Source of the DNA: Candidatus Multivoradales bacterium
GTDB lineage: Bacteria > Acidobacteriota > Thermoanaerobaculia > Multivoradales > JAHEKO01
DNA: 64,000 nucleotides
Reading direction: 5' to 3'
Assembly (NCBI GenBank): GCA_965248055.1
Contig: CBDFIJ010000004.1
Location: 640,001 to 704,000, forward strand
Below, one piece after another: positions 17,433-32,356 of this stretch; position 1 is the first letter of the stretch, and each line of letters starts with the position of its first letter. Position numbers and translations under genes: made by a program. The notes beneath the pieces are model-generated. The model made no database searches. It was not told the origin of the DNA and saw only the letters and a program-made list of their open reading frames with translations.

Positions 17433-20400
17433 CTATCCGGCATTCACGATACCGATCCACTCCCGCATCTCGCCGAGGCTGCAACCGAACTTAGTGTGCC
17501 CGGCCCCCAGCTCTTGGGCTTCGATGATCTGCTCGCAAGAACAGCCACCGGTATCCTCGATGGTGAAACTAGCGTTAGGACCCTTGGGTGAGTGGCCACC
17601 GTTGTCGAACTGGTTGCCACCCGGAGAGACCGTGTCGAAGATTCCATCCCCGTCCACTAGAGCAAAGCGATTGGTGCCCAGATGGTCGGTCGGAACGCCT
17701 TCTGGAATGACGGTATCGGGACACAAATCAAATGCGTCCAACACCCCATCACCGTCGGAGTCGACCGACTCAATCACCGTTAGCGTAGCGCTTGCCGGAT
17801 CGGCCGCTACCGCCGGCCCCTGGCGCAGCGCACTGGTGGTGTTGGGGTAATCGCCCGACGTAGCCCCAGCGGGAACTTGTACCTCCACGCTGAAGGTACA
17901 CGAACCGCCAGGCAGCAGGTTACCGTCGGCAAGACTGATCAACGACGTCCCGGAGAGCGCCGAGCCCAGTCCGCAAACATCCGCAGTCGGCAGGCCGAGA
18001 GCAGACGCCCCAGACAGCATCGCGTCAAGGTCGTCGGTGAAAGCGAGACCGGTCGAACTGGTGGTGGTGCTCAGGTTCTCGATGGTAAACGTCAGAACCA
18101 CTATGTCGCCCGGTTCGGCGGTGCCGTCGAACGACTTACTGAACGAAACCAGGGAAATCTGCAACTCATCAGAAGCTGGGTCACCACTGACAGAACCACT
18201 GTCGGTTGAACCACTCACGCCGCTGGTTGTATTGATGAAGCCAGTCCCCACGCCGACCTCGTTCGGCACCTGCAAGCTGACATCGAAAACGCACGAACTA
18301 CTGGGTGCCAAGTTGCCACCGATGAAGCTCAAGACGCCAGCACCGGAGATTTGCGAGCCGAGACCACAGATGTCGTTTAGCGTGCCGCTAGTCGAAACCA
18401 AACCACTCAGTACGGCATCGAGGTCATCAGTAAACGCAATGCTATTGACGGTGTCGGTGGTGCTGGAGTTGTTGATGCTAAACCGCAGTGTAGCCGTACC
18501 ACCCGGAGGTACCGGATCGTCGATGAACTCCTTGCTAAGAGTCAAGAAGTTAGAAGATACAACCAGTTGGTCGATCGCGCCGTCGAACACCACGTTGGGC
18601 GTGCCGTCCATGGTGGCGGTAACTACATTGACCGAATTGACGTAAATGTCAGAAGCGGCCCCTGCTGGAACCTGCAAAGTGACGTCAAAAGTACAACTAG
18701 CACCAGACACTAGGTTGCCAGCTTGAAACGTCAAGTTATTGGTACCACTGATCTGCGACCCGGTGCCACAGATGTCGTTGGCGGGTAGCCCAACCGCAAC
18801 CAGACCACTTATGACTGCGTTCAGATTGTCGCTGAACACGATGGCGGTAGCATCTTCACCGACACTGTCGTTGGTCAGAGTGAACCGCAGGTTCACGGTG
18901 TCACCGGCAACCACTGGGTCGTCGGTGAACTCCTTAGTAAGCATCAAACCAGCAACCCGAAGGTCGTCACTGGCGCTGTTACCACTGGTGGCAACACCTC
19001 CGACGGTGGCAACCACGTTCGAAGTAGTGTTCGGGTAGTTGCCAGACGGTGTACCCGCGGGAACAACCAAGTCGACCGAGAATTGACAGCTAAAGATGGG
19101 GTTGCCCGCACCTGGATCCAGGAACCCATCCATTAACGTCAAGACACCGGAACTAAAGTCGAGCGAAGAACCGGCGCCACAAGGATCGGTTGGCAATACG
19201 CCAGCCGGTGCTAGCCCAGCCGCTACTGCCTCGAGATTGTCGGTGAAGGTGATCCCGTCAGCCGCATGGCTGACATCGAGATCGATCACGCCGTCGCCAT
19301 CAAGGTCATAGGTGACCGTGAACTGCAACGTTACCGTTCCGCCCGCTGCGACCGGGTCGTCGATGAACTCTTTGATCACCACCGGAGGAGCGACTACGTC
19401 TAACTCATCTGAGGCTGGATCGCCCGCCACCGCTTCGCCATTGATCACTCCGGAAATGTCGCTAGTGGTATTTAGGTAGGTCCCTGCGGGAGCCAACCCG
19501 TCGAGATCGAGGGTCAGGCTGAAGGTACAGCTAGCTCCCGCGGCCAACTCAGCTCCAGTTACCACCAGCTTCGCTGGGGTGGTGCTGGTGGACACGATCA
19601 AAGGCGTGTAGCTAGCGACCGAACCGGCACCGCAAAATCCGTTGGCCGGAACCACCGAAGCGGTGGGCAGCACATCGTCAAAGACATCCTCAAAGGTGAT
19701 GTCGGTCGCGGTCTCCGTGGAATGTGGGTTGGTAATCGTGAATTCGAGCTCAACGGTTTCACCACTGCCCACAGGGTTGTCGAGGAAAGTCTTGGTCAAA
19801 GTCAGAGTTGGCGCGATAAACAACAAGTCGGTTGCGGCCGCACCCACAGTTGGGTTGCCGTCCACGGTCGCTGAGATTGCGCTGGTGGTATTGGTGTAAG
19901 TTCCTGGAGCTGCACCTGCTGGAACCGCAAGCGTGGCGCTGAATACACAGGTGCCGCCGGCGGGCAATTCTCCAGCAGTGAGACTCACAACCCCAGTGCC
20001 ACTGAATTGAGAGCCAGCACCGCAAATACCGTTGACGGGCAAGCCGGTGGCTTCAAGGCCAAATAATGCGGCCCCGAGGTCGTCGGTAAAAGCAATGTCG
20101 GTAGCAGTCGAGCCACGACTCAGGTTACGCACTTCGAACTCGAGCGTCACCGTTCCACCAGGAGCAGTGGGATCGTCGGTAAAGGTTTTGGTCAAAGCAA
20201 TCAGGTTTGAGGCCACTTGGACCTGATCCGTAGCGAATCCGCTATTTAGGATGGGTTGGGATCCTGGGGCAAGCAGTGAAGTTAGATCACCGCTGACGTT
20301 GTTGAGAACGCCAGATGCGTTGGCGGTCACGTCGACGACGACGGTACAGCTCGCCCCGGCAGCCACAGTAGCGTCCCCTTGAAATGCGGGACTGTAAGTG

Positions 20401-21062
20401 ATGACCGAAGTCCCGGCGGCCGCCGTGAGCACCCCACCACCACAAGTCGACGACGCGTTAGCCGGGTTGGCAACCGTCATGTTGGGTGGCAAGTTGTCGG
20501 TGAAACTTAAGCTGACCGCACCGCCCGCATTGGCAGCGTTATCGATCAGAAAGGTGAGGGTACTGCGGGCACCAAAAGCAACAACATTGGGCGAAAAAGA
20601 TTTACTAAAACCCGGCAGGTCTGAGGCGACAGTCAGATCAGCACTCGCTGTCCCGCTGTTACCTGCATCCGAGGTCAAATCCCCGGAAACGTTGCTGTGG
20701 GTTCCTGGCGTCGCAGAGGTTACGTTGAGCGAAACGCTACACGATCCGCCAGCGCCAACCTCGCCTCCGGTTAAAGAAATCGTCCCGCCCCCCGCTGGGG
20801 TAGAAACCGTTCCGCCACAAGAAGACAAAACGCTAGACGGATCGGCAATCGTCATCCCGGCTGGGAAAGTGTCGGAAAAAGCCAAAGACCTCACCCCAAC
20901 TCCTGAACCGTTGGCAATCGAGAACTCCAACGAAGAAGTGCTTCCAATCCCGATGGTTGACGGAGTAAACGCCTTGGAAAACGTGGGTGGTTGAGCGAAA
21001 GCAATCGACGCAGTCGCGACGATCAGTAACGCAGTGATTAGGAAAAACTTTTTGTTCGCCAT
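17433..21062 (-). CDS. Large secreted repeat protein (8 DUF11/CnaB-like Ig repeats, C-terminal TSP3-like and Cys-rich tail), adhesin-like
   Basis: Signal peptide; repeats start with (F/L)(S/T)K(S/E/T/A)F and contain F(T/S)DxL and YxNTTS; DSDGDGVLDAFDLCPDT. Confidence 0.85.
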   Translation of the reverse strand: MANKKFFLITALLIVATASIAFAQPPTFSKAFTPSTIGIGSTSSLEFSIANGSGVGVRSLAFSDTFPAGMTIADPSSVLSSCGGTVSTPAGGGTISLTGGEVGAGGSCSVSLNVTSATPGTHSNVSGDLTSDAGNSGTASADLTVASDLPGFSKSFSPNVVAFGARSTLTFLIDNAANAGGAVSLSFTDNLPPNMTVANPANASSTCGGGVLTAAAGTSVITYSPAFQGDATVAAGASCTVVVDVTANASGVLNNVSGDLTSLLAPGSQPILNSGFATDQVQVASNLIALTKTFTDDPTAPGGTVTLEFEVRNLSRGSTATDIAFTDDLGAALFGLEATGLPVNGICGAGSQFSGTGVVSLTAGELPAGGTCVFSATLAVPAGAAPGTYTNTTSAISATVDGNPTVGAAATDLLFIAPTLTLTKTFLDNPVGSGETVELEFTITNPHSTETATDITFEDVFDDVLPTASVVPANGFCGAGSVASYTPLIVSTSTTPAKLVVTGAELAAGASCTFSLTLDLDGLAPAGTYLNTTSDISGVINGEAVAGDPASDELDVVAPPVVIKEFIDDPVAAGGTVTLQFTVTYDLDGDGVIDLDVSHAADGITFTDNLEAVAAGLAPAGVLPTDPCGAGSSLDFSSGVLTLMDGFLDPGAGNPIFSCQFSVDLVVPAGTPSGNYPNTTSNVVATVGGVATSGNSASDDLRVAGLMLTKEFTDDPVVAGDTVNLRFTLTNDSVGEDATAIVFSDNLNAVISGLVAVGLPANDICGTGSQISGTNNLTFQAGNLVSGASCTFDVTLQVPAGAASDIYVNSVNVVTATMDGTPNVVFDGAIDQLVVSSNFLTLSKEFIDDPVPPGGTATLRFSINNSSTTDTVNSIAFTDDLDAVLSGLVSTSGTLNDICGLGSQISGAGVLSFIGGNLAPSSSCVFDVSLQVPNEVGVGTGFINTTSGVSGSTDSGSVSGDPASDELQISLVSFSKSFDGTAEPGDIVVLTFTIENLSTTTSSTGLAFTDDLDAMLSGASALGLPTADVCGLGSALSGTSLISLADGNLLPGGSCTFSVEVQVPAGATSGDYPNTTSALRQGPAVAADPASATLTVIESVDSDGDGVLDAFDLCPDTVIPEGVPTDHLGTNRFALVDGDGIFDTVSPGGNQFDNGGHSPKGPNASFTIEDTGGCSCEQIIEAQELGAGHTKFGCSLGEMREWIGIVNAG

Positions 21063-21593
21063 GAATTAGTTACTCCTGTTGCGGGTCCAATAGACCCGTG
21101 TTGGAACCGCCTTCACCAACAAACCCCCATAAAAAAAACACCGACGATTTTCTGTACCTTACATCACACCCTCGCGCCTCGTAAAGTTGTCGCGGTACTT
21201 GAAACCTGAGACTCCATTTAAGCCTGCAAATAAGAGAATCTGAACGATCTCTCTTGGTAATATTTGTCGCAACTTAGTAGCTCATGCATCAGCATTTCTG
21301 AAGGCAGACTGGATGGTTCCCGTGAATCGTATATCCAAATTTCCAATGGGATTTAAGTCTTGGCCACGCTCAATAGAGGCGACTTTCCGAGATCCACTAC
21401 GGAGCACGTAGCAATATGCCAGTCCGAATAGTGGTGAATTCTGAGCACTGGGACCACCTATTTGGCAGGGCTCGAGCCGCAGAGCGGCCCCAACCGATGC
21501 ATACTCAGGGTCGAGTTCCAAGGCTGTTGTCTTTGTCGGGGTCAAATCTGCTGATGAAAGAAAATCATTTCACTACCCAGGGCGAATATTCGA

Positions 21594-22163
21594 GTGAGTG
21601 GCACCTTTCTCGAATTCTTACCCGATCAAACTAATCCTATCCACTGCGGTAACCTCTCCGCTGTGCAACGTTCGAGGTTGACCCTGGCAACTGCGGCCGT
21701 CCTCCTTGGATTGGCCGCTGGCGTTGTGTGGCTAGTAAGGCCAAGGCACGGCCCGATCCAAGACCTGACCTCGTGGACTTGGAAAGGCGCCCCCACAACG
21801 ACGGAGCCACTCCAGGGTGGATCAAGTGAAGATTGCTCCTTGGCACAGAGCTTCGTCCTTCGAAAGCTAGGCCGAGTATCCGTCCATCAGGCCGCGGGAA
21901 TCCCAGGGAGTTGCATGTACCTGTTGCAGCTCAACGGTTGGCCGGAGGGAGAAGATGAGTGCATCTTGGAGTTTCCTGTTGAGATGATCCGTGGACTTGA
22001 GATCACAACAGCGACTGCTTGGCTCGCAACACGCTATTACCAACACAGGCAAGGCGGAATTATGGTTTTTTCAGGCCCTGAGCCTGGCCGAAGATACATT
22101 TCACTGGACTCTCGTTGGTGCAAGTTCGAGGGCGTTGTAAACGGAATTCGCGCTATTTCGTAG
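21594..22163 (+). CDS. Hypothetical membrane-anchored protein (start uncertain)
   Basis: 189-aa ORF with one hydrophobic segment, flanked by repeat copies. Confidence 0.5.
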   Translation: MSGTFLEFLPDQTNPIHCGNLSAVQRSRLTLATAAVLLGLAAGVVWLVRPRHGPIQDLTSWTWKGAPTTTEPLQGGSSEDCSLAQSFVLRKLGRVSVHQAAGIPGSCMYLLQLNGWPEGEDECILEFPVEMIRGLEITTATAWLATRYYQHRQGGIMVFSGPEPGRRYISLDSRWCKFEGVVNGIRAIS

Positions 22164-22229
22164 CCCCAGGGCTGTCTGGTTGGATCAAATATTTCGAATA
22201 GTCGGCTGGCATCTACTAACTCAGATCCA

Positions 22230-23242
22230 CTGAGGAGTTTCAAAGCCATCTTGTTGAGCGCTACCAGCGGCGCACCCGAGAGGTGGATGAAGCGATTCTC
22301 GGCTGCTACCTAGCAGGGGCCAACAGCCGTCGGATCAAGAAGGCCTTGACTCCACTGCTGGGCAGGGAGCATCTATCCAAGAGCGCTGTGTCTCGGGTGG
22401 TATCTCGTTTGAAAGAGCACTTTGCCCGTTGGAGTGAACGAGGCCTGTCTGAGGAAAGCTACCCGATCTTGTTTCTTGATGGCTTTCACTTGAAAGTGCG
22501 GCTTGCTCGGCGCGTAGTGTCAGCTCCGGTGCTGGCTGCTCTGGGGGTAAGAGAAGATGGCACCAAAGTCCTGGTAGCTCTACGGTTAGCAGCCAGTGAG
22601 GCAGGCAGTCACTGGAAGTGGTTGATTGAAGATCTTAAACGCAGGGGCTTGAAAGCACCGCATCTCCTGGTCTCAGACGGCCACAAGGGCTTGGCGGTGG
22701 GAGTCAGAGCTTGGCCAGAGGCCAAAGTCCAGCGTTGTATCCAGCACAAGTGGGAAAACCTGAAGAAGCACTGCCCTAAGCATGCTCATGGTGAGCTCAA
22801 GCGAGACTGGGATCAAGTGGTGCGAGCCCAAGATGCCCTGGCGGCCCGAGAGAGTTATTCAATCTTTGTTACCAAGTGGTCCAAGCTGGTGCCCGCAGTA
22901 GCCAGGAGCTTCCAAGAGGCTGGGATGGAACTGATCACTTTCGACGATTTACCGAGATCATTGTGGCGATCCACAAGGACCACCAACGCGCTGGAGAATC
23001 TCAACCGTGAGTTTCGGCGCCGTACCAAGACCCAAGGCTCATTCTCGACTGAGGCAGCGGGTGTCACTTTGCTCTGGGGGCTCGTTGCTTTTGGACAGAT
23101 CAGGATGCACCGCATCAACGGCTACCAAGATTTGCACCGGATGCTTGACCGTCAAGCAGCCGCGTAGCACTAGAATCAACCAAACCTGACCGCGGGAGAC
23201 GTTACGCCAAATACCAATTTCCACAAGATTCGGGACACATCC
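22230..23242 (+). mobile_element. IS256-family element, 5'-truncated (transposase ORF 22283-23167)
   Basis: LFLDG...LVSDGHKGL...QRCIQHK...RTTNALENLNREFRRR; right end TTCCACAAGATTCGGGACACATCC; reading frame open only from ~22220. Confidence 0.88.
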
Positions 23243-23353
23243 AAAGGATTCCGCCGGATATTCTCTCGCTTCGACAAATTGGACGTCATCTTCACTTTCT
23301 TCATATACTTCGCGCTCATCGTAGATGCCATTCGTTAGTGTTAACACGCCCTA
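23243..23353 (+). mobile_element. IS5-family 3' remnant
   Basis: Encodes KGFRRIFSRFDKLDVIFTFFIYFALIVDAIR*, followed by terminal GTGTTAACACGCCCTA. Confidence 0.7.
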
Positions 23354-23591
23354 ATTCAGTTCGCGGACAAGAGGTTCTTTTGTGTGAGTTCAGAAGTGCT
23401 GGACAGGTTCAAAGAGCCAATTGACACGAACGCTTTCCAAGCCTATGCCGAGATCTTCTCTCGAACGATCAACGAGCATCGCAGCTTACGAGGACGGCCC
23501 GAGTATGGTGAGGCCCCCAACGGGCCGAAATATTCGGCTGGCACTTTTCTCGGCTTCATCTCATCCTGACTTTGTCTAACCACACCGACAA

Positions 23592-24611
23592 CTAGTCAAC
23601 ACGATAGATTTCGTCGCCTGAAATCTTAAGGACATAGGCATAGGTTTCTGGAAGGTTGTTCATTTGACGTGTGCCAATCGAGTAATCGGCGCTGTATGCT
23701 TTTGGCTGCGTATAGTAAACGCTACCACCGGTCAGACGAGCGTAAAGCAACATACTGAGAGAGATTGGCTTGGGACCATACGGGGCGTAGATGGAGCCAT
23801 TCTTTGACCCAGAGGCAAACGCGTGTATATGTGAGAATATCTCTGAAACATCCTTCCAATCCACCCACTGCATGTTAGGCGTTCGCTCCCCAAGGTCTCT
23901 GTCGAAAGCTTGGAGAAACTCCCACACGCGGTGATGTTCTGGCGTAAGTCCCGGAACGGGAACGAGCAAATGAAACTCCGCATGTTCGTATTGCTGATCT
24001 CCAAGAGGTGGAAGATTCAACGCTTGGAAACCAACGGAAATGACTACATTTTCGATCCGTTCCGGTGGGTAGTTTGGGCCAAACATAGGAAGATGAGCCC
24101 ATGGCTCAGGATCTTCGGCTAGTGCTCCGCTCCCATACCTCTCTGCTAGCGTATAGGTGACAATTAGGTTCTTGACGTTATCTGCGTCGAGAAGCATTTT
24201 GACCGTTGGAAAAAAGAAGCGCTTCGGCATAGTCGAAATGTCCACGATCACGTCTCCTTGCGGTGCACAATCGGTAACAAATCGATTCACCCGATCAGCG
24301 ATCTCTTGGGTACTCGCGAACAGTTGAATGTCCTCAACTGCGCTGGCTAGACCCCCTAGGGCACACAGCCGTTGTACCGTTTCGCTTGTCCTCTGCTGCA
24401 CCTCATCAGTGAACCGTGACGGCGGATCCTTGATAGAGAAGAATAAGCAAGGAGTGCATGATTCTGTCTTAGTCAGCACTTCCCAACAAGCGAGACACCT
24501 AGACTCTGGTCCCACGCTCCCAACAAAGCCCCACCGGCTCACATCCATTCGCTCAGCAATCCAAGAGAGTGGGCCCCACGGGCGCCATTTACCCTTCTCA
24601 AGTTCTTTCAT
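23592..24611 (-). CDS. Hypothetical protein with two Rossmann/CARF-like modules; last gene of the candidate defence operon
   Basis: VIVDISTMPK...VTYT and IYAPYGPKP...VYYTQP motifs; ATG directly follows the ATPase stop. Confidence 0.7.
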   Translation of the reverse strand: MKELEKGKWRPWGPLSWIAERMDVSRWGFVGSVGPESRCLACWEVLTKTESCTPCLFFSIKDPPSRFTDEVQQRTSETVQRLCALGGLASAVEDIQLFASTQEIADRVNRFVTDCAPQGDVIVDISTMPKRFFFPTVKMLLDADNVKNLIVTYTLAERYGSGALAEDPEPWAHLPMFGPNYPPERIENVVISVGFQALNLPPLGDQQYEHAEFHLLVPVPGLTPEHHRVWEFLQAFDRDLGERTPNMQWVDWKDVSEIFSHIHAFASGSKNGSIYAPYGPKPISLSMLLYARLTGGSVYYTQPKAYSADYSIGTRQMNNLPETYAYVLKISGDEIYRVD

Positions 24612-26639
24612 TTAGAAGAGTTCGAGCTGGTCGGAGCGGCCGTCTTGCGGCTTCGTCCTCCGCACCTCCTGAGCCTCGCGATTCCCCTTGGCAGCCTCCA
24701 TCCACGAGAGCGCCTCCGAAACCTTGACGTAGAGAGGTTCCTTGGCATGCTTTGCTGGTATTTGAAACCGCGGGGAAAGGATGGGTGCCAAATACCACTT
24801 ATTTCGGGGGCGTTTGTCCTCCCTATTGGTGGTGTGACGTGCATCGAACAAATGCCCGTAGTCGACTGCTTGTTTTAAGAACTTGTCGAGCTCCACGTAT
24901 TCTCCTAGTTCGTCTTCATCCAGTGAGAATCCGTTGTGTCCCGGGTATGCCATCCCTTTGTCTGCAAGCAACCTCTTGCGAAATGACCTGCCAAGGAACG
25001 AAACAAAACGTCGATACGTATGACCATTTGGCTGCTCCATAATTTTTTGATACCAGTACTCGCTTGCCTGAAATATACCAACCGTCTGTTCCTTGGTATC
25101 AATCGGGAACCGTACGCGTTTGTTGTTCACAATTGGATGTTTGCTCTCATATCGTGACCAGGTGGAAAAGATTTCTCTAGCTAGACTGATAAACACCAGT
25201 ATGTTTCCACCACTTAAGACACGTAGGTCGTCCTCACCAGACCACCTTAATCGCTGCTGACGCCTTGCAGCCATCTGCAGCAGTGCTTGGTGGACTCGCT
25301 CCTTTCTCCACCAACTCTTTGATTTCCATGAGAGTCCGTTCGCGGGTGGCTCTTGCTCAAGCATACGTGAACCCTTCTGCTGGCGGAGCATAGCTGCCCC
25401 CAAATTGGCGGATAGTGGGCTAGTCTCGCTCAGTTCGCGCAAATATACCTTCCAACCTTCGGGCCATTGCTCTACCAAGTCCAGGGAACGCTCAGCGTCG
25501 CTCCCCGCATAGACCTTGGCCTCATTCTCTGGCGAAGGTGTTTTGCCAAATACCTGTCGGGACAACGTTTCGCCACCTCCCTCAAGCTCGTAACCAGCGA
25601 ATTCCAGGCGTCGTTTCAGTACATCATCAGAGAAATCTGGGAAGATCCAAGTGCGGCGGTTTTCCTTCCTCCGCAATAGGTCATCCAGGTCAATCACGCG
25701 GTAGTTTCTCTCGTGTTCGAGGTTCGCTTCTGAACCGAAAATCCTCAAGTCCTCTCGCCAGGCGTATCGGCGAGCGCCAATTCGATAGGACACCTTAGGA
25801 TCCCGCGTCGCGAGGGCCTTGTTAATTAGTCGACGAAACTTGGGCTCTACCCGGTGAGCGTGAACATCACTAGCGAACCTCCCAACTTCCTCGTATTGGT
25901 CAACTCGAACAAACACTGGCATTTCCTTCGGAATTATTCCTATCTCTCTAAGCCCCTTGGCCGTTTGAGAAATCGGTTCACCGACCGGCGTCTTGGTGGT
26001 TGCGATCTCCGTAGGAAGGCGTTCCATATTGAAGTTCAGGAACGAGCGATACAGAGTCAGTCTTTTTCTCAGCCGTTTCCGTAGCTCTTCACAGTTCCGT
26101 ATTCCATCCAAGAATCCTAACCAACAGTCTTGCGCTGCTAACCATTGAGCGAATTCATCAAGACGACCACCGTGGGTATTGATGTTCCAAGATCTTGCCA
26201 ACTTACCTTCGCATGCGTCGTCGAGCTTCGAAACTGACTCAAGAATATCTTCAACTACCCAGTAGTTAAGGAAATCACCAAAATAGACAGCCGAAACGGC
26301 GCCCAGGTCCGGCCCATTTTCCTCCTGGAGTCGGCGTTGGCCGAAATCTGTGGCCGCACTCCTCGCGAGGTTAATCCCCGCTCCAATGAATCTGGCGTCA
26401 TCTTGGGGGAGCGGAAACTGCACACCAGCCGTGAAATAAGCAATCTGAATCTCTGGCTTAAGTAGGCTGAGAAGCATACTCTTACCGCTACCCTGAACTC
26501 CCTTCACTACGACATTGCCCACTTGGAACAATTCCTGAGCATGCTCTACAAGAAAAGGGCTAAACAGGGTCACAAAATCCTCTGGGGCAATGGTTTCGGA
26601 AACATAGAGCTCGTGAAATGGATTGCTGATCCGCGGCAT
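24612..26639 (-). CDS. ORC/CDC6-STAND-like P-loop ATPase
   Basis: N-terminal NPF; Walker A GVQGSGKS; Walker B VFVRVDQYE; GAGGTGG before ATG 26639. Confidence 0.8.
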   Translation of the reverse strand: MPRISNPFHELYVSETIAPEDFVTLFSPFLVEHAQELFQVGNVVVKGVQGSGKSMLLSLLKPEIQIAYFTAGVQFPLPQDDARFIGAGINLARSAATDFGQRRLQEENGPDLGAVSAVYFGDFLNYWVVEDILESVSKLDDACEGKLARSWNINTHGGRLDEFAQWLAAQDCWLGFLDGIRNCEELRKRLRKRLTLYRSFLNFNMERLPTEIATTKTPVGEPISQTAKGLREIGIIPKEMPVFVRVDQYEEVGRFASDVHAHRVEPKFRRLINKALATRDPKVSYRIGARRYAWREDLRIFGSEANLEHERNYRVIDLDDLLRRKENRRTWIFPDFSDDVLKRRLEFAGYELEGGGETLSRQVFGKTPSPENEAKVYAGSDAERSLDLVEQWPEGWKVYLRELSETSPLSANLGAAMLRQQKGSRMLEQEPPANGLSWKSKSWWRKERVHQALLQMAARRQQRLRWSGEDDLRVLSGGNILVFISLAREIFSTWSRYESKHPIVNNKRVRFPIDTKEQTVGIFQASEYWYQKIMEQPNGHTYRRFVSFLGRSFRKRLLADKGMAYPGHNGFSLDEDELGEYVELDKFLKQAVDYGHLFDARHTTNREDKRPRNKWYLAPILSPRFQIPAKHAKEPLYVKVSEALSWMEAAKGNREAQEVRRTKPQDGRSDQLELF

Positions 26640-26641
26640 GA

Positions 26642-27679
26642 CTACCACCTCGCCGATCGTGGAAACAGTGGACTCCAATCGCTTGACGAGTGGTGCACAA
26701 TTGGGACGGTGTTATCTGGAGTATTCGTGAATAAAACTACTGTTCCGCCGGTCCTACGATATCCAAATGGTGTGTAGGGTTTGTCTTTCTCCGACAAGGG
26801 CGGATTGGCACCGCAGACTTGAGCAAAGCTGACCTCCAAGAGAGCACGCAACTCGCCGAAGACTGCAGGCTCCGATTCCGAGGGCTGCGGTGATACAAAC
26901 ATATGTTTTTCCAGAGCTAGAACCGGTTCGAACTCTAGATTGGCATGTCTATTCGCAAGAGCCCTGCCTTTTGCAATGCCCGCCGGGCAAATAATAAGAG
27001 GGGTCAGCAGGACTCGTACGTTCTCCGAAAGTGAAGCAACAAAATCAACAGGATCTGCCATCTGACTCCCGCTGCCCACGAAATCCTCAAGCAGTACTAT
27101 GTGCTGTATGTCTCTCTTTTTAAGATACTCAAGGATCTTAGTTTTTGACCCGAGCTTGTGCAGGGTCATCCAAACAGGCCTGTACCACCGGCCTTCAATT
27201 TGGTTTACATGATAAAAATTCGCAATATCCATACTGTCAGTGATCGAGCAGAACCAAGTCTTGTCTATGACATTTGCCAGTGTTTGGTCTACGGCTTCGC
27301 GGTCAAAACTCGCACCTCGGTCAAGATCACGCAGTGCATGACGCGCGAACGGACCGTTAAATGCAGCGCGACACAAACCGTTGAGGTGTTCTTTAGTTAT
27401 GTAAAGCAGGAACGGAACGAGCTTAAACAACACCCTTTGCTGCTCCTCAGATTCAACGTTACTCAACCAGTCGCGGAGTCTCACCGGAAACTCCGGGAAC
27501 GGCCCAGCAGTCGGAACGTAGTCTCCAAATGCATGTTTCGAGACATATTCGATCACGTCGAACATCGTCAGGTAGTTTGCTCCCGAAGCAACGTTTCCAA
27601 CATCCAGGGAATCAAAACTCTCCTCTAGAGTCCACTTCTCCAATTGCTCTACGAAACTACGTGTGTTCGGCCAACTCAC
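26642..27679 (-). CDS. Type I phosphoribosyltransferase-like protein
   Basis: PRPP-binding loop HIVLLEDFVGSGSQ; C-terminal PFGY...NTPDNT...WSPLFPR. Confidence 0.8.
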   Translation of the reverse strand: MSWPNTRSFVEQLEKWTLEESFDSLDVGNVASGANYLTMFDVIEYVSKHAFGDYVPTAGPFPEFPVRLRDWLSNVESEEQQRVLFKLVPFLLYITKEHLNGLCRAAFNGPFARHALRDLDRGASFDREAVDQTLANVIDKTWFCSITDSMDIANFYHVNQIEGRWYRPVWMTLHKLGSKTKILEYLKKRDIQHIVLLEDFVGSGSQMADPVDFVASLSENVRVLLTPLIICPAGIAKGRALANRHANLEFEPVLALEKHMFVSPQPSESEPAVFGELRALLEVSFAQVCGANPPLSEKDKPYTPFGYRRTGGTVVLFTNTPDNTVPIVHHSSSDWSPLFPRSARW

Positions 27680-28878
27680 TGGAGAAGGCTCCGACGCACA
27701 CTTCGGGCTATCCAGGCAGCGGCCGGTGGAGGTACCGCGTTTCCGATCTGCCGATACTGATCCTGCCGCCTTCCGGAGAACTCATAGTCATCTGGAAACC
27801 CCTGCAGACGAGCGGCCTCACGAACGGAAAAACCGCGTGTTTCAGCCGGGTGGAGAAAATAGCGAGGATCTCCAAATCTGGTGTGCACGGTAGGAGCAGG
27901 CTCGTTCCACTGCAGTCGTTTGTATTTTCCGTTAAACGTCCGCGTCAGATCCCAATTGTCACCTACTTTCCGGATATACCCTTTTCCTAGGAGAGAGCGT
28001 GCTATATCAAGATACGCACTCCCCCATTTGCTCTGCAGCCGGTCAGGCGGTACTGGATCAGCATCGCCCCAGTTACGCCTTCGATTACGTCTCCTCTCTC
28101 GAAGTAAGAACGTAAGCAAAGCTCTTTCCTCGGCCGTTGTCCTTCCAAAGACCGAAGGGATTTCCCAGGTGTGAACAGCGTTCGGGCCAGCTCTTACATT
28201 GGAGAGTTTCTGGCCCGGACCTATGTGAGCTGCGATGGCCGTAACAACGCTATCAGCAGGTGGCCGGACTGGATAGTGGTCTGGTAGCGATTCAACATCT
28301 TTGAGCGCGTCGGCCAAAGACGACGCCTTTTCACCAAGGTGCTCCATGTAGAACTCCGCGTCCGTCCGCCATGCAATCAGCAACAGCCGCTTGCGGACTT
28401 GCGGAAGTCCAGATCTATCTGCATGACATACAAACTCTCGCGTACGAAATCCGCCTGATGAAAGACATTCATGAGCAGCCTGCCAGTACTTTCCATGTCC
28501 CCCGGTACGTGCTGCGGGGACGTTCTCAAGGACAAACACTTTTGGTCTGAGAAGGGTGGCCAGTTCTGCGGCGAGAGGCACGAAGTGATTTCGTGGATCA
28601 TCCACTCTTCTTTTTCCAGCCGTGGAAAACCCTTGACAAGGTGGCCCGGCGAGTAACACATCCACGTTGTAAGCTCTCGACGGAAACTCTGCAGGAGTCG
28701 AAAGGTCGCGGACCTCGCTTACTTTAGCGATGTTGTGTTCGTAGCTCGACAACGCGGCGGCATCAACGTCGAAAGCAGCAACCGGGCGAAAGCCGCTGTG
28801 AAGAAACCCTAAGTCAAACCCGCCGCAACCCGAAAAGAGACTTGCGAACCGAGGGGTGTCTTGAATCGCCGATAGCAC
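27676..28878 (-). CDS. dcm: DNA (cytosine-5)-methyltransferase
   Basis: FSGCGG, GPPCQGFS, ENV, PQVRKR, REAARLQGFP, QIGNAVPP; start moved to GTG 28878 because the longer ORF overlaps tRNA-Cys. Confidence 0.93.
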   Translation of the reverse strand: MLSAIQDTPRFASLFSGCGGFDLGFLHSGFRPVAAFDVDAAALSSYEHNIAKVSEVRDLSTPAEFPSRAYNVDVLLAGPPCQGFSTAGKRRVDDPRNHFVPLAAELATLLRPKVFVLENVPAARTGGHGKYWQAAHECLSSGGFRTREFVCHADRSGLPQVRKRLLLIAWRTDAEFYMEHLGEKASSLADALKDVESLPDHYPVRPPADSVVTAIAAHIGPGQKLSNVRAGPNAVHTWEIPSVFGRTTAEERALLTFLLRERRRNRRRNWGDADPVPPDRLQSKWGSAYLDIARSLLGKGYIRKVGDNWDLTRTFNGKYKRLQWNEPAPTVHTRFGDPRYFLHPAETRGFSVREAARLQGFPDDYEFSGRRQDQYRQIGNAVPPPAAAWIARSVRRSLLQ

Positions 28879-28884
28879 TTGCCC

Positions 28885-28890
28885 ATTATA
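28885..28890 (-). promoter_or_regulatory. Perfect -10 box (TATAAT) 6 nt before the methyltransferase GTG; likely leaderless promoter
   Basis: Minus strand reads TATAAT-GGGCAA-GTG; no Shine-Dalgarno. Confidence 0.6.
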
Positions 28891-28928
28891 GAAGCACGTG
28901 AGGAACGCCAAACTAATTGCGTGATTGA

Positions 28929-29003
28929 TGGAGGCGACGGTCGGAATCGAACCGACGAATGAGGGTTTTGCAGACCCTTGCCTTACCACTTGGCTACGTC
29001 GCC
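28929..29003 (-). tRNA. tRNA-Cys (GCA)
   Basis: GGCGACGTAGCCAAGTGGTAAGGCAAGGGTCTGCAAAACCCT...GGTTCGATTCCGACCGTCGCCTCCA. Confidence 0.97.
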
Positions 29004-29059
29004 TTGAGAGAACGGGGCGCCGGAGAATCGGAACCTCGAAAAGGCACAAGGATAAGAAA

Positions 29060-29134
29060 TGGAGCGGGAAACGGGATTTGAACCCGCGACCCCAACCTTG
29101 GCAAGGTTGTGCTCTACCACTGAGCTATTCCCGC
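29060..29134 (-). tRNA. tRNA-Gly (GCC)
   Basis: GCGGGAATAGCTCAGTGGTAGAGCACAACCTTGCCAAGGTTG...GGTTCAAATCCCGTTTCCCGCTCCA. Confidence 0.97.
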
Positions 29135-29145
29135 CCGGGCATCGA

Positions 29146-29174
29146 AGGATAGAAAGCGGGGGGCGGGGTGTCAA
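29146..29174 (-). promoter_or_regulatory. Sigma70 promoter of the tRNA-Gly/Cys operon
   Basis: TTGACA (29174-29169), 17-bp spacer, TATCCT (29151-29146). Confidence 0.75.
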
Positions 29175-29235
29175 GGAAAAGGGAGATTTTGGTGGCTTTT
29201 GCGCCGATAAGTTGGGTTGAGGAGGTTGTGGCGTC

Positions 29236-29580
29236 GAGATCCTTCGACTCCGGCCTACGGCCTGCGCTCAGGATGACAAGAAGTGGAAAAAGGGGGGCAA
29301 CTCGTCGAAGAAAAGGGGAGGGGATAAACCCTTTCCTCAGGATGACAAGAAGTGTGGCGTGGGGTGCAACTCATAGAAGACAAACGCGAGGGGGGTTATC
29401 CCTCTCCTATACAGAGTTCATCAGCTGAGGGTGCGCAGGCAGGCAATCGACAGATCCCGGCCCCGCGCCCACTCCCCCGCCGGGATGACGGGGTGACGGG
29501 GTGACGGGATGATGGTGTGAGTGAGCCGTTTGACCTGGCAGTGGATTGTAGGGTCGCAATAGCCAAAGGGACGCCTACCT
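29236..29580. repeat. REP-like palindrome cluster
   Basis: GAGATCCTTCG...CTCAGGATGAC; ~70-bp imperfect tandem duplication at 29267-29408; CAGATCCCGG...CCGGGATGACG at 29449-29490. Confidence 0.75.
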
Positions 29581-29976: not shown

Positions 29977-30349
29977 CGGGAGGGGGTAAACCCCTCCCCT
30001 ACGAAGAAGAGAACGCGGATGGATGGACAGATCCCGGCCCCACGCCTGCTCCCCCGCCGGGATGACGGGTCCAGGTGATGGTGTTACGGCGCCGAGTAGC
30101 GGGAGGTGAGGCCATCGCCTACCAAAGGTTATGGCGAGGCGACGAGAGGTGAGGCAGGAAATCTCTTGGTAGGGGAGCCGTTTCCGGGCTCCCGCGATTC
30201 GACGCAAGCGAAACGTTCTTCCTAGTCCTGGTAACGCAGGTGAGATGGGACCAAAGAACGGGAGCGGATAAACCCCTTCCCTACGAAGATGGAAACGCGC
30301 ATAGGCGGACAGATCCCGGCCCCCCTGCCTCCCGCCCGCCGGGATGACG
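29977..30349. repeat. GTAG-type REP and GTCATCCCGG-type palindromes
   Basis: Composite units at 29977-30067 and 30259-30349; inverted GTAG...CTAC doublet at 30169-30284. Confidence 0.75.
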
Positions 30350-30370
30350 GCAGGCAGAACGGAGCTTGCC

Positions 30371-31813: not shown

Positions 31814-32356
31814 CTAGAGAGTGACTGTGACACTGCCGCCCAACCAGGTGACAGCGGTGGGCGTATTGAATTCGCGAAAGGCCTCTTCATTGTCGAACTC
31901 GATTTCCCCGGAACCCGCCGCCACCGAAGTAAAGCGGAAGGTAATCACCAATCCCGAACCGGAAACGATGGCCCGATTACTGCCCAGCTTATTGACCCCG
32001 ACGATGATCGTTCCAGTCTGCCTTTCGCTAACTAGCAACTCAACGTTGCCGCCGAGGAACCCACCCAGGGTTGCCTCTTGGAAGGTCAGCAAGTTGGTGG
32101 GGTATTCCAGGTCGAAAGCGAATCCACGCACGTGATCCATTTCGTTGGCGCGAAACTCCAACTGCAACGTTGTCGGACTGCCGGAGGCGGCGTCGGTCAG
32201 AAACGCGGTGTTGGCACCGGCCGAACTACTCTCAGAGAAGGTAATGCCTGCCGATGGAACAACCGGACCACCGCCCCCCCCACCCCCGCCTCCGCCACCA
32301 CCACTGCAGGCAGAAACCAAGACGATCAGCAGCAAGCCACAGAGAGTTCTATTCAT
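31814..32356 (-). CDS. Lipoprotein with a cohesin-like domain
   Basis: Lipobox LVSAC; poly-Gly linker; GFAFDLEYP...SGSGLVITFRF. Confidence 0.65.
   Translation of the reverse strand: MNRTLCGLLLIVLVSACSGGGGGGGGGGGGPVVPSAGITFSESSSAGANTAFLTDAASGSPTTLQLEFRANEMDHVRGFAFDLEYPTNLLTFQEATLGGFLGGNVELLVSERQTGTIIVGVNKLGSNRAIVSGSGLVITFRFTSVAAGSGEIEFDNEEAFREFNTPTAVTWLGGSVTVTL

Follow-up and report, generated by a model that had tools for sequence, protein, structure and literature searches.

What does a cytosine methylase do when it travels with a phosphoribosyltransferase, an ATPase and a putative ligand sensor, and with no obvious restriction nuclease? The question is raised by a four-gene operon in the genome of Candidatus Multivoradales bacterium (Acidobacteriota; assembly GCA_965248055.1, contig CBDFIJ010000004.1). 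The window analysed here is the 64,000-nucleotide (nt) stretch from position 640,001 to 704,000 of that contig, and four co-oriented, coupled open reading frames (ORFs) fill its positions 23592-28878 on the minus strand. These genes form an intact copy of a conflict cassette that is self-contained and moves horizontally; its components and their association are already catalogued (PF24389, PF24390 and PF24391 in Pfam; the CARF6 models in PADLOC). The cassette is probably anti-phage or anti-mobile-element, and we consider it likely to be a defence-type set in which the phosphoribosyltransferase (PRTase) acts as a nucleotide-metabolism effector. In the order of transcription, the genes are:

27676-28878, minus strand: C5 cytosine DNA methyltransferase (Dcm-like), 400 amino acids, GTG start
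26642-27679, minus strand: PRTase-CE phosphoribosyltransferase-like protein, 345 amino acids, the predicted effector
24612-26639, minus strand: ORC-CDC6-like AAA+ ATPase with a C-terminal winged-helix-like module, 675 amino acids
23592-24611, minus strand: tandem-CARF protein with two CARF domains, 339 amino acids, no fused effector

The junctions are as tight as the initial annotation of this DNA had claimed. The Dcm and PRTase genes share a GTGA overlap (27679-27676), the PRTase stop and ATPase start are 2 nt apart (TAG-tc-ATG, 26644-26637), and TAA and ATG abut between the ATPase and CARF genes (24614-24609). The Dcm gene begins at GTG 28878, the first in-frame start that spares the tRNA and precedes the Pfam match, with an in-frame TTG at 28911 as an alternative. 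The ATG at 28886 lies in another frame, and a mechanically called ORF reaching TTG 29049 is not real; it runs across tRNA-Cys. The distance of 50 nt from GTG 28878 to the 3' end of tRNA-Cys is as first described, whereas the operon end then given, 28890, overshoots this start by 12 nt. The operon is also AT-richer than both flanks, as proposed: G+C is 0.50-0.54 over 23000-28999, against 0.57-0.61 towards cysS and 0.55-0.59 in the opposite flank. A consensus-match promoter scan of the minus strand returned a single sigma-70-like site, at 29174-29146 upstream of tRNA-Gly; the 50 nt that separate tRNA-Cys from the Dcm start hold none, and tRNA-Cys is not followed by a terminator-like site. The operon may be co-transcribed with the tRNAs by read-through from the tRNA promoter. 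At a related locus, L002, a tRNA-Ser lies ~245 nt upstream of its Dcm gene on the same strand.

All four domain assignments of the initial annotation hold, three through Pfam (PF00145, PF24390, PF24389) and the last through the PADLOC CARF6 model PDLC01923; its methyltransferase, PRPP-loop and Walker A/B motifs are intact here and conserved in the orthologues. The methylase matches PF00145 (3.5e-56, 191 bits) and TIGR00675 (1.7e-41) and carries motifs I, IV, VI, VIII, IX and X as FSGCGG, PPCQ, ENV, QVRKR, RLQGFP and GNAVP. Orthologues at 41-52% identity occupy the same position in related loci. The target-recognition stretch (residues 180-355) is gap-free over 48 orthologues and the window protein at a mean identity of 0.49; in these 49 proteins from many phyla it is as conserved (49%) as the catalytic core (44%). 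Such a conserved target-recognition region appears unlike the diversifying specificities of restriction-modification systems. PADLOC returned MTase_II (1.9e-70), and its DruM and DrmMII matches reflect a generic C5 methylase; DISARM class 2 and Druantia type II were rejected as identities, the other three proteins matching no Drm or Dru model in PADLOC. A second C5 methylase is encoded elsewhere in the genome (G000:C4:1341626-1342990, PF00145 at 194.8 bits, 525-amino-acid frame).

For the PRTase, the fold call rests on Pfam, PADLOC, ESM Atlas and motifs. The protein matches PF24390 (1.6e-31, 110.6 bits, cut-off 27) and the retron-type PADLOC model PRTase_III-A (6.1e-20), and its nearest ESM Atlas clusters are all PF24390. 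A phosphoribosyl pyrophosphate (PRPP)-loop-like motif, IVLLEDFVGSGSQ, is conserved; in 13 sequences, E198, D199, G202 and Q206 show little or no variation. One paper lists PF24390 alongside type III-A1 retrons (PMC13712802). In Retron-Eco11, PRTase activation is reported to accompany abortive infection and ~50% PRPP depletion (PMC12746101), while ShosT is described as coupling PRTase with pyrophosphatase activity and disrupting purine metabolism (PMC11961720). A 2025 preprint presents defence PRTases as one clade and names ShosT as the only characterised member (10.1101/2025.09.30.679545).

The ATPase matches PF24389 over residues 28-643 (5.5e-41, 141.4 bits, cut-off 27). In 12 sequences, G47, G50, G52 and K53 of the Walker A motif GVQGSGKS and D247, Q248 and E250 of the Walker B-like VDQYEE are invariant, and the C-terminus is highly conserved among relatives. 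An AlphaFold model (predicted local distance difference test, pLDDT, 80.9; predicted template modelling score, pTM, 0.83) comprises an AAA+ core and a helical region, together with a C-terminal helix/strand module at 570-651 that resembles a winged helix. Foldseek matched this model weakly to Orc1/Cdc6 structures (1w5t, 2qby, 1fnn; probability 0.98-1.0, E 2e-3 to 5e-3) and, again with high probability, to archaeal 2v1u and ORC subunits; BrxC of BREX (9zll) was matched at probability 0.97 and E 7.7e-4. Profile searches of PDB sequences found no solved relative of the ATPase, the PRTase or the CARF protein.

The fourth protein has no Pfam family and matches the CARF6 model PDLC01923 at E 1.2e-70. 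Its AlphaFold model, built with 36 homologues, reached pLDDT 91.3 and pTM 0.92. An exhaustive VIA-align search placed the single-chain double-CARF nuclease Can1 (6sce_A) first, with Z 14.3 and a root-mean-square deviation of 3.3 across 227 residues over 26-306, a match that covers both CARF domains. The 19 best VIA-align entries (Z 14.3-8.7) are all CARF proteins; the matches include Can2, Csm6, Card1, Cam1, Csx1, Csa3, VC1899, Cdn1, the ring nuclease Sso2081, Cad1 and Cami1. Foldseek against the PDB with the same model returned only tandem universal-stress-like domains (TM score <=0.31). Each half carries one CARF motif, D124-x-S-x-x-P-K130-R131 and A276-P-Y-G-P-K281-x-x-S284. From the PADLOC model and the Can1 fold match, the predicted structure is that of a tandem CARF with no fused effector. 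In this genome, which is 97.7% complete, SMODS and Cmr2 (TIGR02577) gave no match and Csm1 (TIGR02578) only a sub-threshold one of 31 bits, the cut-off being 170; a known synthase of cyclic oligonucleotides that could serve the CARF protein was not recognised. A profile of this clade's CARF matched 1011 cluster representatives at E <=1e-3, 294 of them at <=1e-30, among 1.84 billion.

No obvious nuclease had been noted in the operon, and this stands: Pfam finds no nuclease family in the four proteins, the PRTase being judged from sequence families and motifs, and none common to the flanks of 12 related loci. A cognate endonuclease of the kind that adjoins the methylase in type II restriction-modification systems was likewise not found in the operon, nor as a gene shared by those flanks.

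Whether the four genes form a unit was addressed through related loci. An ATPase-seeded search recovered 12 loci from distant phyla, all with the Dcm-PRTase-ATPase order and 11 with the CARF gene as well; the twelfth contig ends first. A CARF-alignment search added 67 loci. Seven that lay on already included contigs (L036, L042, L047, L051, L065, L071 and L073) were dropped, leaving 72 unique loci from more than 10 phyla. Conserved order had been set as a check by the initial annotation, and it is there in 48 of the 72, with all four genes full-length (coverage >=80%), colinear and closely packed. Contig ends cut a further 11, and 12 of the 72 (12 of 61 uncut) are frameshifted, truncated or interrupted by an insertion sequence (IS) in any of the four genes (L007, L011, L012, L025, L037, L038, L040, L052, L070, L079, L086 and L088). 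At the one remaining locus, L085, the PRTase, ATPase and CARF genes are intact and Dcm is missing. A methylase that failed to keep company with the other three elsewhere had been named as evidence against the unit; instead, Dcm is present at 64 of the 65 loci whose upstream sequence reaches far enough to judge, and its divergence tracks theirs. Across the 48 loci and the window, pairwise distances of the four proteins correlate with r 0.68-0.90 (r 0.68-0.78 for Dcm), values that none of 999 permutations reached. At the level of sequence, this correlation shows co-inheritance and nothing more, since kin share history.

By record titles, hosts belong to Acidobacteriota, Bacteroidota, Pseudomonadota, Planctomycetota, Verrucomicrobiota, Chloroflexota and Actinomycetota, with further records from Nitrospirota, Nitrospinaceae, Desulfobacula, Paceibacterota, Omnitrophota and the archaeon Nitrosocosmicus. 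The cassette is scattered over these phyla at 30-50% identity and does not follow host phylogeny. Flanks vary by locus and comprise recombinases, IS elements, an AbiE pair, a RepB-type primase, other defence-type genes and ordinary metabolism.

Some neighbours recur beside the cassette. A gene for ThyX, a flavin-dependent thymidylate synthase, lies directly beside 5 of the 72 Dcm-type loci (L009:4497-5447, L084:8092-8964, L080:1720-2559, L066:1873-2706, L067:1838-2710) and 3 of 10 sister cassettes from the same phylum as the window (L102:4033-4950, L107:8948-9925, L108:8699-9625); the window has none. Because these copies are 47-68% identical across loci titled as different phyla, they seem to travel with the cassette. 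A gene for the T/G mismatch endonuclease Vsr flanks Dcm-type cassettes in at least six loci (L025:7989-8426, L043:8049-8450, L049:7623-8066, L023:8009-8422, L009:3712-4326, L040:9184-9615), as expected if Dcm really makes 5-methylcytosine (5mC). The window's own genome gave no Vsr match.

Beyond this clade, the ATPase family PF24389 is sparse. It was found in 11 of 401 sampled genomes of the window's phylum (a tally that includes the unpublished G069), in 15 of 401 from the phylum of Larkinella and in 9 of 401 from that of Rhizobium sp. C1, or 2-4%. Pfam annotation of the neighbours of 30 PF24389 hits verified sister cassettes in three phyla, of these types:

L102, L111, L112, L125, L113, L126, L101 (unpublished G069): N6/N4 or gamma-N6 methylase with PRTase-CE
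L104, L115, L117, L118, L119, L127: C5 methylase with HD-CE (6 of 6 HD-CE loci)
L103, L128: D12 Dam methylase with calcineurin-like phosphoesterase (Metallophos)
L114, L129, L130: calcineurin-like phosphoesterase, no methylase in view
L106, L108, L122, L123: kinase-ATPase fusions
L105: TIR-ATPase fusion
L121: DruA-led variant

Methylases of four unrelated classes thus accompany the same ATPase/CARF core, and the methylase may stand at either operon end (L101, L104, L126). The CE names reportedly go back to Nicastro et al. 2023. One paper spells CE as 'conflict effector' and credits its reference 8 (PMC12871103), and a fused kinase-AAA+-CARF-wHTH relative was described by Makarova et al. 2014 (PMC4012209). 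Partner genes tested are CARF6 members in 12 of 14 cases, with a PADLOC model of their own for each clade; the ~400-amino-acid partners of two kinase-type loci gave no PADLOC CARF6 match. Several sister cassettes hold or adjoin further genes: ParA-like and SIR2_2 genes between methylase and kinase-ATPase (L108:1695-8696), a C5 methylase with a kinase-ATPase and a NOV_C protein (L122:2938-9696), a dGTPase-like HD/HD_assoc gene (L126:2645-4021), a class II ribonucleotide reductase (L130:8899-12861) and, in L101 from G069, a dUTPase (551-1225).

The window operon has the make-up of this catalogued family of methylase, CE effector, ORC-CDC6-like ATPase and CARF6: all four components match above threshold, with PRTase-CE directly upstream and CARF6 directly downstream of the PF24389 ATPase and the methylase in the operon. 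The view that the system was undescribed therefore does not survive, given that PF24389 and PF24390 are curated in Pfam and that PDLC01923, one of the CARF6 models PDLC01910-01925, is specific to the window clade. That clade differs from its sisters in pairing PRTase-CE with a C5 methylase, whereas the other PRTase-CE cassettes sampled carry N6/N4 methylases (7 loci). In the ATPase and CARF trees alike it branches with full support on a long stem (1.73 and 2.15), and its ATPase matches PF24389 at 1e-28 to 1e-41, against 1e-63 to 1e-127 for other cassettes. Its deep placement in the ATPase FastTree is poorly settled and prone to long-branch effects. The cross-type ATPase alignment, at 18-19% identity, was too divergent to seed a locus search.

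The genomic setting of the operon is defined by the following features:

17433-21062, minus strand: repetitive surface-type protein, 1209 amino acids, bordering the island and ~60-70% conserved with the congener
21100-23591: remaining ORFs of the inserted stretch, no Pfam family
22225-23246: truncated IS copy with a Mutator-family transposase ORF (22283-23167, plus strand)
23244-23365: multi-copy repeat of ~120 nt, adjoining the IS copy
28929-29003, minus strand: tRNA-Cys (ARAGORN and Rfam), the insertion site, directly upstream of the operon
29060-29134, minus strand: tRNA-Gly (ARAGORN and Rfam)

The island is a foreign insertion beside tRNA-Cys, spanning ~21100-28928 (7.9 kb) between the surface-protein gene and the tRNA. 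In the congener G001, tRNA-Cys lies ~380 bp from the homologue of the surface-protein gene; here 7.9 kb separate it from the gene end at 21062. A DNA search of 20 relatives (including G002, an unpublished genome) found no match to the operon DNA, 23592-28878, in any of them and matched only tRNAs, cysS, short repeats and IS. PF24389 is absent at the protein level from the congener and two same-family genomes. The foreign origin first suggested for this stretch is thereby confirmed, as is its end in a repeat and IS debris: the IS piece has at least 8 further copies in the genome (97-99% identity) and the repeat at least 4 (83-85%). The transposase ORF matches PF00872 (8.8e-64) from profile position 104. 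Pfam finds no integrase in the island, and a search for direct repeats of the tRNA end (14 nt or longer) that would mark its border returned none.

How such a cassette might work is suggested by its composition. Its own Dcm would load the chromosome with 5mC at one conserved target. An invader that degrades host DNA would then release 5-methyl-dCMP or a related methylated nucleotide, which the tandem CARF, having no cyclase partner, could bind. The ORC/Cdc6-like ATPase would serve as a STAND-like switch or oligomerising hub, and PRTase-CE, once switched on, would consume PRPP and upset nucleotide pools, as reported for the Retron-Eco11 PRTase. Replication of host and phage would stop, resulting in abortive infection. 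The PRTase is here placed as the cassette's output, not as signal maker for the CARF protein, because sister cassettes fill the same slot with HD-CE, calcineurin-like, kinase or TIR domains. The initial annotation had also allowed for a PRTase that supplies the fourth protein with a nucleotide to sense or process, and this exchangeability of the slot renders that option unlikely.

The closest competitor keeps the same cassette and PRTase output and places the trigger elsewhere. In a restriction- or BREX-like arrangement, Dcm would mark self and the ATPase would read unmethylated invader DNA through its winged-helix module, possibly with the methylase, leaving the CARF protein only to tune the response. 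The near-constant methylase (64 of 65 loci) fits this arrangement, as does an ATPase of the DNA-binding ORC/Cdc6 kind that is BrxC-like in fold. In BREX, a BrxC scaffold and the methylase are described as binding unmethylated sites (PMC12839542), and the conserved Dcm target-recognition region and ATPase C-terminus could be a matched pair. However, the most distinctive component, CARF, is left without a clear role, and methylase class and position change freely, which is hard to fit with a matched reader or a fixed interface. Intact cassettes without a methylase (L085, L129, L130) also speak against such a trigger, since they would be self-toxic under restriction-like logic. This competitor is a serious possibility, though one that we doubt, and we lean towards a methylase that makes an alarm precursor. 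That trigger gives the cyclase-less CARF a job and accommodates four unrelated methylase classes, at either operon end, serving the same core; varied class and position fit action through a product rather than through a protein complex. Further, indirect support comes from the Dcm target-recognition stretch, gap-free and as conserved as the catalytic core, from the existence of the three methylase-less cassettes, and from the precedent of m6-dAMP as trigger of PUA-Calcineurin-CE-HAD.

Three other explanations carry less weight. Restriction-modification-like units are known to act as addiction modules, and loss of a selfish cassette of this kind would dilute methylation until a long-lived ATPase/PRTase killed the segregants, stabilising the island. 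Mobility and a position beside a tRNA gene, with IS elements and recombinases, agree with this, but about one in five loci is frameshifted or IS-disrupted, which strong addiction should hinder, and intact methylase-less copies exist. We regard addiction as improbable, and in any case it is compatible with a defence role rather than exclusive of it. Still less probable is that the CARF protein answers to, or degrades, the cyclic oligonucleotides of a type III CRISPR or CBASS system, making the cassette an accessory arm. In fold it comes closest to ancillary CARF proteins of type III CRISPR, ring nucleases among them, and the PADLOC models derive from a CARF census of CRISPR-linked proteins. Against this, the genome is without SMODS or Cmr2 and has Csm1 only at a sub-threshold 31 bits, and the cassette is a closed four-gene unit in more than 10 phyla whose neighbours vary. 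Hardly credible, finally, is a housekeeping or regulatory set for epigenetic regulation and nucleotide salvage with no conflict role. PRTases and Dcm enzymes do have housekeeping relatives, and ThyX, dUTPase and Vsr genes sometimes adjoin the cassette, yet no more than 2-4% of the sampled genomes carry it, the congener lacks it and its G+C is below that of its surroundings. Its scatter over phyla at 30-50% identity off the host phylogeny, and an effector slot exchangeable for TIR, kinase or HD domains, point the same way.

Several observations weigh against the favoured interpretation, whose complete statement, including the methylated-nucleotide trigger, we put forward only tentatively, as we infer both the ligand and the enzyme activity. 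To our knowledge, the ligands so far characterised for CARF domains are cyclic oligoadenylates or RNA ends, and none is a mononucleotide. The maximum-likelihood CARF tree does not follow methylase chemistry: the window clade stands apart from the C5/HD-CE CARFs and groups weakly (77/75) with those of N6-methylase/PRTase cassettes. A BLAST hint of a CARF clade following methylase chemistry was accordingly dropped, being unsupported by that tree. The genome of L085 has no PF00145 match at all and is a metagenome bin whose completeness is not established, and the methylase-less loci were inspected within ~3.6-4 kb. The Retron-Eco11 PRPP result is modest (P = 0.04, three replicates) and concerns a different PRTase-CE subfamily. 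A literature search, with supplements outside its scope, found no experimental paper on the four-gene cassette, and among the papers listed none presents this set of genes. The full chain of a stored alarm, from a 5mC charge through free 5-methyl-dCMP, a cyclase-independent CARF and the ATPase to a PRPP-consuming PRTase, is unlikely to hold in every link.

Even so graded, the locus poses a sharp question: does the methylase mark self, or does it make the precursor of an alarm? The answer would also tell what a CARF protein senses without a cyclase. The clade is rigid, with one gene order and one target-recognition region in more than 10 phyla and one archaeon, and offers a clean experimental model. 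If the PRTase depletes PRPP, the cassette would provide a second, non-retron context for a PRTase effector. If the stored alarm exists, it would provide the first case of a CARF whose ligand is a methylated mononucleotide, and the first danger signal derived from a C5 methylome.

Outside the island, interspersed repeats of 40-50 nt lie between the tRNAs and cysS (29235-29286, 29454-29502 and 30312-30350). They match many places in the congener at 88-92% and give recurring peptide strings in spurious ORFs. A lipoprotein-like ORF is predicted at 31814-32356 (minus strand), with a 12-glycine run after a signal-like N-terminus.

Comparison with characterised systems helps to delimit the cassette. 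With type III-A retrons such as Retron-Eco11 it shares the effector family (PADLOC PRTase_III-A). The retron sensor is a reverse transcriptase with its multicopy single-stranded DNA, whereas the sensor here would comprise methylase, ATPase and CARF; Pfam finds no reverse transcriptase in the operon or island, and Rfam finds in 20900-29400 only the two tRNAs and no msr/msd RNA. BREX is likewise methylation-linked, is described as having no classical restriction nuclease, and uses an ORC/Cdc6-clade ATPase with a winged helix-turn-helix (PMC12839542). The window cassette is nevertheless without PglZ, BrxA, BrxB, BrxL or a PglX-type N6 methylase, the operon holding only PF00145, PF24390 and PF24389 in Pfam where BREX has PglZ and PglX with BrxC. 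Its ATPase is half the size of BrxC and resembles it at the level of fold only, and BREX has neither CARF nor PRTase. As in Can1, two CARF domains are joined in one chain as a pseudo-dimer, but the window protein has no fused nuclease or other effector domain, and the Cas10 cyclase that accompanies type III CRISPR ancillary proteins was not detected in this 97.7%-complete genome.

The nearest parallel in working logic, though not in membership, is PUA-Calcineurin-CE-HAD, which is likewise a nuclease-less set with a conflict effector and a methylation-dependent trigger. In that system, m6-dAMP from a phage-degraded, Dam-methylated chromosome is reported in a bioRxiv preprint of January 2026 to activate a nucleotide-depleting effector, and methylases unaccompanied by restriction enzymes are described in linkage with related loci (PMC12871103). 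The system senses m6-dAMP through a PUA-like domain and depends on the Dam enzyme of its host. The window cassette differs in having a candidate tandem-CARF sensor, a C5 methylase of its own and an AAA+ ATPase interposed. It belongs to a widespread but sparse family of methylase-linked, nuclease-less gene sets, and if the stored-alarm reading is true, such 'methylase without nuclease' cassettes would represent self-sufficient versions of the m6-dAMP logic of PUA-Calcineurin-CE-HAD.

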